A DNA stretch of 380 nt, from assembly GCF_003334255.1 (NCBI RefSeq), contig NZ_QOWU01000252.1; one strand, written 5' to 3'. This document shows positions 1-380 of this stretch, piece by piece. Position numbers and translations under genes: made by a program. The notes below the pieces were generated by a model, which did not search any database, was not told the DNA's origin, and saw nothing but the letters and a program-made list of their open reading frames with translations. The stretch is from Escherichia coli. Its GTDB lineage: Bacteria; Pseudomonadota; Gammaproteobacteria; Enterobacterales; Enterobacteriaceae. Each line of letters starts with the position of its first letter. Position 1 is the stretch's first letter.

Positions 1-7
1 GGTGGTG
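1..7 (+). promoter_or_regulatory. Possible Shine-Dalgarno-like element for L, embedded in the 3' end of the upstream gene
   Basis: The purine-rich GGTGGTG at 1-7 lies about 5-7 nt upstream of ATG 13. It is only a partial match to the AGGAGG consensus. Initiation of L may instead, or additionally, rely on translational coupling through the TGATG stop/start overlap. Confidence 0.3.
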
Positions 8-13
8 AACTGA
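1..13 (+). CDS. M: 3' terminus of upstream CDS, probably phage minor tail protein M (partial; 5' end outside window)
   Basis: In frame 2 (codons 2-4, 5-7, 8-10) the sequence gtg gtg aac reads V-V-N, followed by TGA at 11-13. As I recall it, lambda gpM ends ...EQVVN, and in lambda M lies immediately upstream of L. Only three codons are visible, so the call rests mainly on synteny with the confidently identified L gene downstream. Confidence 0.5.
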
Positions 14-380
14 TGCAGGATATTCACGAAGAAAGTCTGAACGAGTCGGTTAAGTCAGAGCAGTCACCGCGGGTGGTACTCTGGGAAATCGACCTGACGG
101 TGCAGGGCGGTGAGCGGTATTTTTTCTGCAATGAGCTGAATGAAAAAGGGGAGCCGGTGACCTGGCAGGGGCGTGAATATCAGGCGTACCCGATTGAGGG
201 GAGTGGCTTTGAGATGAACGGGAAGGGCAGCAGTGCCAGACCATCGCTGACGGTGTCCAATCTGTTTGGTCTGGTCACCGGGATGGCGGAAGACCTGCAG
301 AGTCTGGTGGGGGCCACGGTGGTCCGCCGCCGGGTGTATGCCCGTTTTCTGGATGCGGTGAATTTCGTTGCGGGCAATCC
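13..380 (+). CDS. L: Phage minor tail protein L, lambda gpL family (tail tip assembly); 5' end complete, 3' end beyond window
   Basis: ATG at 13-15, then an uninterrupted frame-1 reading frame to the window edge. Translation: MQDIHEESLNESVKSEQSPRVVLWEIDLTVQGGERYFFCNELNEKGEPVTWQGREYQAYPIEGSGFEMNGKGSSARPSLTVSNLFGLVTGMAEDLQSLVGATVVRRRVYARFLDAVNFVAGN. This aligns without gaps to the N-terminus of lambda gpL as I recall it (MQDIRQETLNE...VVLWEIDLT..GGERYFFCNE.NEKGEPVTWQGR.YQ.YPI.GSGFE.NGKG...RP.LTVSNL.G.VTGMAEDMQSLVG.TVVRR.VYARFLDAVNFV.GN). The many conservative substitutions indicate a lambdoid homolog, not lambda itself. No in-frame stop occurs in the window. Confidence 0.9.
   Translation, partial: MQDIHEESLNESVKSEQSPRVVLWEIDLTVQGGERYFFCNELNEKGEPVTWQGREYQAYPIEGSGFEMNGKGSSARPSLTVSNLFGLVTGMAEDLQSLVGATVVRRRVYARFLDAVNFVAGN

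Follow-up and report, generated by a model that had tools for sequence, protein, structure and literature searches.

The 380-nucleotide stretch of Escherichia coli DNA analysed here (referred to as the window throughout) carries the start of a gene that resembles gene L of phage lambda and differs from it at many positions. The locus raises the question of whether these differences indicate that the prophage carrying it is a mosaic, or whether they reflect the ageing of a single lineage, the import of a short gene segment or the decay of a prophage no longer in use. To answer this, the gene itself has to be considered along with its distance from lambda, its relatives and the DNA that flanks it in genomes carrying the same sequence.

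The window comprises the junction between genes M and L, both on the plus strand, and codons 1–122 of L, the gene for the tail-tip (hub) protein gpL. Direct reading of positions 1–13 (plus strand) gives the 3′ end of gene M, the gene for the distal tail protein, with the final base of a Gln codon followed by Val-Val-Asn and the stop codon TGA at 11–13. Gene L begins with the ATG at 13–15 and, on translation, occupies positions 13–380 of the plus strand (codons 1 to 122 and two nucleotides of codon 123), so that the stop of M and the start of L share one base in the sequence TGATG. Translation of the frame from position 13 gives MQDIHEESLNESVKSEQSPRVVLWEIDLTVQGGERYFFCNELNEKGEPVTWQGREYQAYPIEGSGFEMNGKGSSARPSLTVSNLFGLVTGMAEDLQSLVGATVVRRRVYARFLDAVNFVAGN. 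The L frame is open to the right end of the window, and the whole gene measures 232 codons in a locus that matches the window at 100%. In the prophage of E. coli ATCC 25922, the window corresponds to positions 20001–20380 of the prophage locus (L001), where the RefSeq coordinates are 19684–20013 for M and 20013–20711 for L. The first 12 nt of the window are also present in lambda.

Comparison of the window protein with lambda gpL (chain 8iyk_L) using phmmer yields an E-value of 2e-63 over residues 1–122 on both sides with no gap, and the lambda genome (J02459) yields the same gpL sequence as 8iyk_L. The equivalog model TIGR01600 ("phage minor tail protein L") scores 364.9 bits on the full gene and 182.4 bits on the part inside the window, against a cut-off of 70.75 bits. 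Taken with the phmmer E-value, this score identifies the frame as a real gene and not a chance ORF. The full gene is also matched by the Pfam family PF05100 (Phage_tail_L; E = 1.5e-92, model positions 3–206 of 206), and PHROG minor tail protein families give E-values between 1e-77 and 1e-79; the match to PF05100 begins at residue 31 and that to TIGR01600 at residue 11. In the RefSeq annotation of the loci that match at 100%, the neighbours are a tape measure protein, an M-like protein, L, a C40 peptidase (K), a tail assembly protein (I) and gpJ, and the gene order H-M-L-K-I-J-lom-stf-tfa is collinear with that of lambda. These results confirm that the window encodes a gpL homologue of a lambda-like E. 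coli prophage and covers most of its HDI domain. The product is already named "phage minor tail protein L" in RefSeq (WP_001348269.1) and is identical in many genomes, in agreement with the original prediction, which had described the locus as not unusual.

The structure of lambda gpL has been determined by cryo-EM (PMC10721106). Residues 1–166 form the HDI domain, a beta-sandwich similar to that of the tail tube, and residues 154–232 form a surface-exposed domain with a [4Fe-4S] cluster whose ligands are Cys173, Cys182, Cys205 and Cys212. The HDI domain of lambda gpL forms a trimer, which together with gpJ makes up the last tail ring beneath the gpM hexamer (PMC10721106). From the 79.5% identity of the window protein to lambda gpL, we infer that it would play the same structural role, with an HDI trimer contributing to the tail-tip ring with gpJ. 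The four cysteines fall outside the 380-nt window and were followed in matching genomic copies; they are invariant between the full-length gene of a matching locus and the homologues of lambda, N15, HK97, HK022 and phi80.

The window protein differs from lambda gpL (8iyk_L and J02459) at 25 of its 122 residues in an ungapped alignment, i.e. 79.5% amino acid identity, and 293 of the 380 nucleotides are identical (77.1%). The substantial divergence that the original prediction had proposed is thus present and near-identity to lambda gpL is absent. The substitutions, written from lambda to the window, are R5H, Q6E, T8S, C12S, T13V, R14K, A15S, A19P, S20R, E30V, V31Q, Q42L, Q55E, P58A, Q62E, L68M, T73S, T75A, T78S, Y85F, M87L, M95L, G101A, K107R and N120A. 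Residues 5–19 read RQETLNECTRAEQSA in lambda and HEESLNESVKSEQSP in the window, and residues 29–31 read TEV and TVQ, respectively; the lambda strings that the original prediction gave for both places are exact according to 8iyk_L and J02459. The several Q-to-E and M-to-L changes that it mentioned correspond to three of the former (Q6E, Q55E, Q62E) and two of the latter (M87L, M95L), accompanied by one change in the opposite direction (L68M). It had also stated that the core motifs are retained, and five motifs (VVLWEIDLT, GERYFFCNE, GEPVTWQG, LVTGMAED and VYARFLDAVNF) are indeed identical in the two proteins. The substitution C12S falls in codon 12 (window 46–48), which is not among the four ligands of the Fe-S cluster.

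Nei-Gojobori estimates for the window against lambda are about 1.2 for dS, close to saturation at synonymous sites, and 0.13 for dN, giving a dN/dS of 0.106. The 20% difference in amino acid sequence is old and has built up under strong purifying selection; it does not reflect decay. The rival view, that the gene is a pseudogene decaying within a cryptic prophage and has accumulated substitutions under relaxed selection, is suggested by one of the copies that are 100% identical to the window, since this copy (E. coli IAI39) belongs to a decayed prophage, in which an IS629 remnant and a group II intron truncate the tape-measure gene. However, the dN/dS value argues against relaxed selection, the frame of 232 codons is intact and the four Fe-S cysteines are present in the matching loci. 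Moreover, alleles with 93.5–99.1% amino acid identity occur in phages that have been isolated and deposited, and the ATCC 25922 prophage retains a complete set of morphogenesis genes. Decay is, on this evidence, extremely improbable as the source of the substitutions.

The changes are not spread evenly over the window, as the part most diverged from lambda is formed by codons 1–31 (13–105, plus strand), and within it residues 5–31. Eleven of these 31 residues are changed, compared with 14 of the 91 that follow (Fisher p = 0.022), a modest p value for a split that was chosen after viewing the data. Such an enrichment could point to a breakpoint inside the gene near codon 31, with the N-terminal 31 codons being of another origin, and megablast appears to agree with this, as it aligns the lambda-type alleles of E. 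coli from nt 61 of the window onward only. However, dS is similar in codons 1–31 and 32–122 (1.6 and 1.1) while dN differs threefold (0.27 and 0.087), which argues for weaker constraint at the N-terminus; a segment of other origin is not needed for such a pattern. Across N15, HK97, HK022 and phi80, conservation is likewise lowest at the N-terminus, which lies outside the Pfam model. A breakpoint near codon 31 is improbable in view of these observations, and the excess of changes in residues 1–31 would fit weaker constraint. Across the window, no breakpoint was found in bins of 100 nt, in which identity to lambda ranges from 75 to 84%. The start of the megablast alignments at nt 61 also accounts for a candidate that we have rejected, namely a third or hybrid allele at 80–90% nucleotide identity; the sequences concerned are lambda-type alleles.

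The original prediction placed the gene in a lambdoid lineage different from that of lambda itself, and searches with the full protein bear this out. With tblastn, about 150 phage records match at 90% amino acid identity or more (Stx1- and Stx2-converting phages, 2851, CP-1639 and PhiR12 among them), standing apart from about 120 records of lambda and its close relatives at about 77%; a single record falls between 80 and 90%, and 902 records lie below 60%. The same separation is seen in bacterial genomes. A match to the window is contained in 2,989 of 5,426 complete E. coli genomes, and among 20,395 complete E. coli genome records the best match is at least 90% identical in nucleotide sequence in 1,874 of the 3,007 records that match. 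When the list of E. coli matches was sampled evenly down its ranking, none fell between 91.3% and about 81% nucleotide identity. Lambda gpL (PDB 8iyk, 8iyl, 8k35, 8xcg and 9e7m; AAA96550.1) likewise has 232 residues and aligns over the full gene with no gap at 77% amino acid identity; its gene is also flanked by M and K and overlaps M through the same TGATG, and it has the same Fe-S cysteines. Alignment with homologues of the N15 and HK97 type, which had been proposed as a check, gives 29–34% identity, too distant to represent the relevant lineage. The proteins in question (N15 gp18, HK97 L, the HK022 gp L-like protein and phi80 gp17) belong to the same Pfam and TIGR family, share the M-L-K-I-J order and have the four cysteines. 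However, they are 245–252 residues long, with 17 additional residues inserted after about residue 46, and have a different N-terminus. Because of this low identity and the insertion, N15, HK97, HK022 and phi80 were rejected as the lineage of origin and the allele was placed in lambda's own 232-residue subfamily, within which, judged by sequence comparison, it constitutes a second and very common class.

The closest phage relatives are the gpL proteins of Stx1_14040 (BCI49088.1), 2851, CP-1639, PhiR12_2 and vB_EcoS-569R3, with 93.5–99.1% amino acid and 94.7–96.3% nucleotide identity. Long-tailed Stx-converting and related lambdoid phages share both the allele class of the window and its K-I-J-lom neighbours. 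Between Stx1_14040 and the window there are 15 nucleotide differences, 11 of which lie within nt 102–207 (positions 7102–7207 of its locus, L012), a clustering that has a p value of about 0.006 in a permutation test of the scan statistic. At six of the 15 differences Stx1_14040 has the base of lambda. This pattern suggests that short patches of gene conversion between the allele classes might have occurred.

Identity to lambda within the window and across M to L is fairly even (72–84% per 100 nt) and the substitutions are mostly conservative, which is what would be expected if the prophage were a uniformly diverged cousin of lambda, related to it by plain vertical descent. The differences in L would then be silent on mosaicism. 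However, analysis of the ATCC 25922 prophage reveals that amino acid identity to lambda changes from 25% to 94% between genes. The lowest values are those of FI (25%) and nu1 (34%), followed by the other head genes from A to E (50–66%), while Z, U, V, G and T reach 71–80%. Further along, H is 92% identical to its lambda counterpart, M 80%, L 77%, K 86%, J 67% and tfa 94%. Within gene H, sliding windows reveal a block of about 1.5 kb (L001 17869–19368) that is 96–100% identical to lambda and has sharp edges, against 64–87% identity in its flanks. The block is situated about 630–2130 nt upstream of the window, with its right edge about 600 bp away. To the right of it, roughly the last 100 codons of H stay with the diverged M-L-K-I-J genes. 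As the C-terminal helix of lambda gpH (residues 818–842) sits within the tail tip (PMC10721106), this breakpoint may keep interacting parts together.

The second kind of evidence against uniform divergence comes from the left edge of the window. When the IAI39 and ATCC 25922 prophages are compared, the DNA upstream of window coordinate -4 is only about 40% identical and effectively unalignable, whereas downstream of this point identity rises to about 96–100% and is maintained over more than 6 kb, covering L, K, I, J and lom, with a few short dips. The last mismatch between the two M-allele contexts is at -4 (junction region L001 19996–20023 and L011 6996–7023), and the mosaic junction coincides with the border between genes M and L at the left edge of the window. 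The two M proteins, of 109 and 113 residues, are 45% identical to each other and both end in QVVN; the tape measures are 27% identical.

The same L allele is found in prophages of differing make-up. The window is matched at 100% in the ATCC 25922 prophage, which is integrated at potB and has lambda-type head genes, an M of 109 residues and an H of 853 residues, and again at 100% in the prophage of E. coli 2017C-4173W12, integrated at ompW. A third 100% match lies in the decayed prophage of IAI39 beside mlrA, with an M of 113 residues and a long tape-measure gene. The Stx1-converting phage Stx1_14040 has a 96% copy of the window, paired with an M of 113 residues, a tape measure of 1,080 residues and another set of head genes. 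The Stx1_14040 and 2017C-4173W12 loci were compared around the junction and at the level of proteins. The L allele is thus linked neither to a particular head or tail-shaft module nor to an integration site. In the IAI39 copy (L008 6733–13679), the integrase is fragmentary, and the tape-measure gene has lost its 5′ end beside the IS629 remnant and the group II intron (ltrA); the genes from L to J are still about 96–100% identical to those of the intact ATCC 25922 prophage.

With an identical L window joined to an M that is unalignable in nucleotide sequence, to tape measures of 27% identity and to differing head genes, plain vertical divergence becomes very improbable. The mosaicism claimed in the original prediction is upheld by the range of 25–94% between genes, the block in H and the occurrence of the same L after two M alleles. 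However, this evidence is situated in the flanks; our analysis supports the view that mosaicism rests on the surrounding context and that the 380 bases of the window alone cannot show it. Which setting applies depends on which of the many genomic copies of 100% identity is the source of the window.

The reading that almost certainly holds is that the window carries a common L allele of a lambda-like prophage, that its distance from lambda is old and has been kept under purifying selection, and that it belongs to an L-K-I-J module which has been exchanged as a block with one border at M|L. The L-K-I-J tail-tip module would be swapped as a unit among lambdoid prophages, and one boundary of the exchange would lie between M and L, where the window begins. 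The junction might be the product of recombination between lambdoid phages that shared a host, either as resident prophages or through co-infection. How frequent the two arrangements are can be seen from the M and L pairings, for which 1,807 and 1,497 genomes contain a site aligned to 80% or more of the query, figures that accept any identity detectable by megablast and so overstate the strictly allele-specific pairings. The chromosome of E. coli AR_0013 (NZ_CP032204.1) carries both pairings, at 4559324–4560020 and 4825071–4825779, and in each of them the window is 100% identical to the query. Therefore, the tip module could be exchanged directly between co-resident prophages of this kind.

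The sequence at the junction deserves a closer look. A stretch of 25 nt, CAGGTGGTGAACTGATGCAGGATAT (window -1 to 23), is identical in lambda, ATCC 25922, 2017C-4173W12, IAI39 and Stx1_14040. According to the alignment and the list of mismatches, its part inside the window covers positions 1–23 of the plus strand. It spans a Shine-Dalgarno-like AGGTGG, which is a putative ribosome-binding motif, the stop of M, the start of L and the first codons of L. We have considered the existence of a specially conserved linker at M|L and have dropped it, because the run is no longer than chance allows: a run of at least 25 nt against lambda has a probability of about 0.41 in a simple simulation, and a longer one of 31 nt exists elsewhere in the region from M to I. 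It has been reported that the boundaries of modules in lambdoid phages fall at gene boundaries (Juhala et al. 2000; Clark et al. 2001; Hendrix 2003; summarised in PMC3233612). Two causes have been proposed for this, one being exchange at short conserved sequences that mark the boundaries and the other illegitimate recombination with subsequent selection (PMC3233612). Whether CAGGTGGTGAACTGATGCAGGATAT might serve as a recurrent recombination site of the 'linker' type of Susskind-Botstein and Clark, at which the L-K-I-J tip module is re-assorted, is doubtful, and we consider it unlikely. If it were true, the interface of the gpM–gpL ring would tolerate very divergent partners (gpM at 45% and the tape measure at 27% identity).

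The sharp changes of identity, the junction at a gene border and the presence of one module in unrelated backgrounds are the same features as those of the pervasive mosaicism of lambdoid phages, as summarised in PMC3233612, and nothing seen here differs from it in kind. The allele and its mosaic setting are already known and there is nothing new in them. The finding is ordinary because more than 1,000 E. coli genomes already have the variant annotated and prophages that are otherwise unrelated exchange it, and its importance beyond annotation is small, given a common allele of a well-studied structural gene in a mosaic context that is textbook knowledge for lambdoid phages. The use for prophage typing that had been suggested earlier holds for the tail-tip module but not for the whole prophage, because the allele is not linked to anything that lies upstream of the M|L border, nor to a particular head, tail shaft or integration site. 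The L allele alone should not be used to type a prophage, as identical copies are found in differing prophages and sometimes within one strain. One gpL occurs naturally with two gpM proteins that are only 45% identical, and these pairings also represent a data set with which the essential contacts at the interface of the gpM–gpL/gpJ ring could be explored.

Several minor features of the window were also analysed. Reverse-strand ORFs of 35–65 residues were dismissed as unsupported, being antisense to the strongly supported gene L. A search of both strands of the window with Rfam in permissive mode returned zero RNA families, and a promoter scan of the window returned zero promoter-like sites. 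A weak terminator-like hairpin with a stem of 5 bp was detected at 331–344 (one found where 0.3 are expected). It lies within coding DNA and, with the sequence following it, extends over 331–354, reading CGGGTGTATGCCCG then TTTTCTGGAT where lambda has AAGGTTTACGCCCG. As the stem is broken in lambda, we took the hairpin as probably a product of chance.

The sequence T TTT TTC at positions 120–126 (codons Y36-F37-F38) has the form and phase of a slippery heptamer and is kept in lambda. A -1 shift at this place would encounter a TGA (132–134) two codons further on. The heptamer seems to follow from the conserved YFFC motif and not to represent a recoding site. The gene that follows L in the ATCC 25922 prophage (L001 20722–21465) encodes the C40 peptidase, which measures 247 residues in RefSeq. 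Lambda K measures 199 residues in the old GenBank record (J02459 14276–14875), and the 199 aligned residues are 86% identical. The difference in length between the two looks like a choice of start codon made in annotation.
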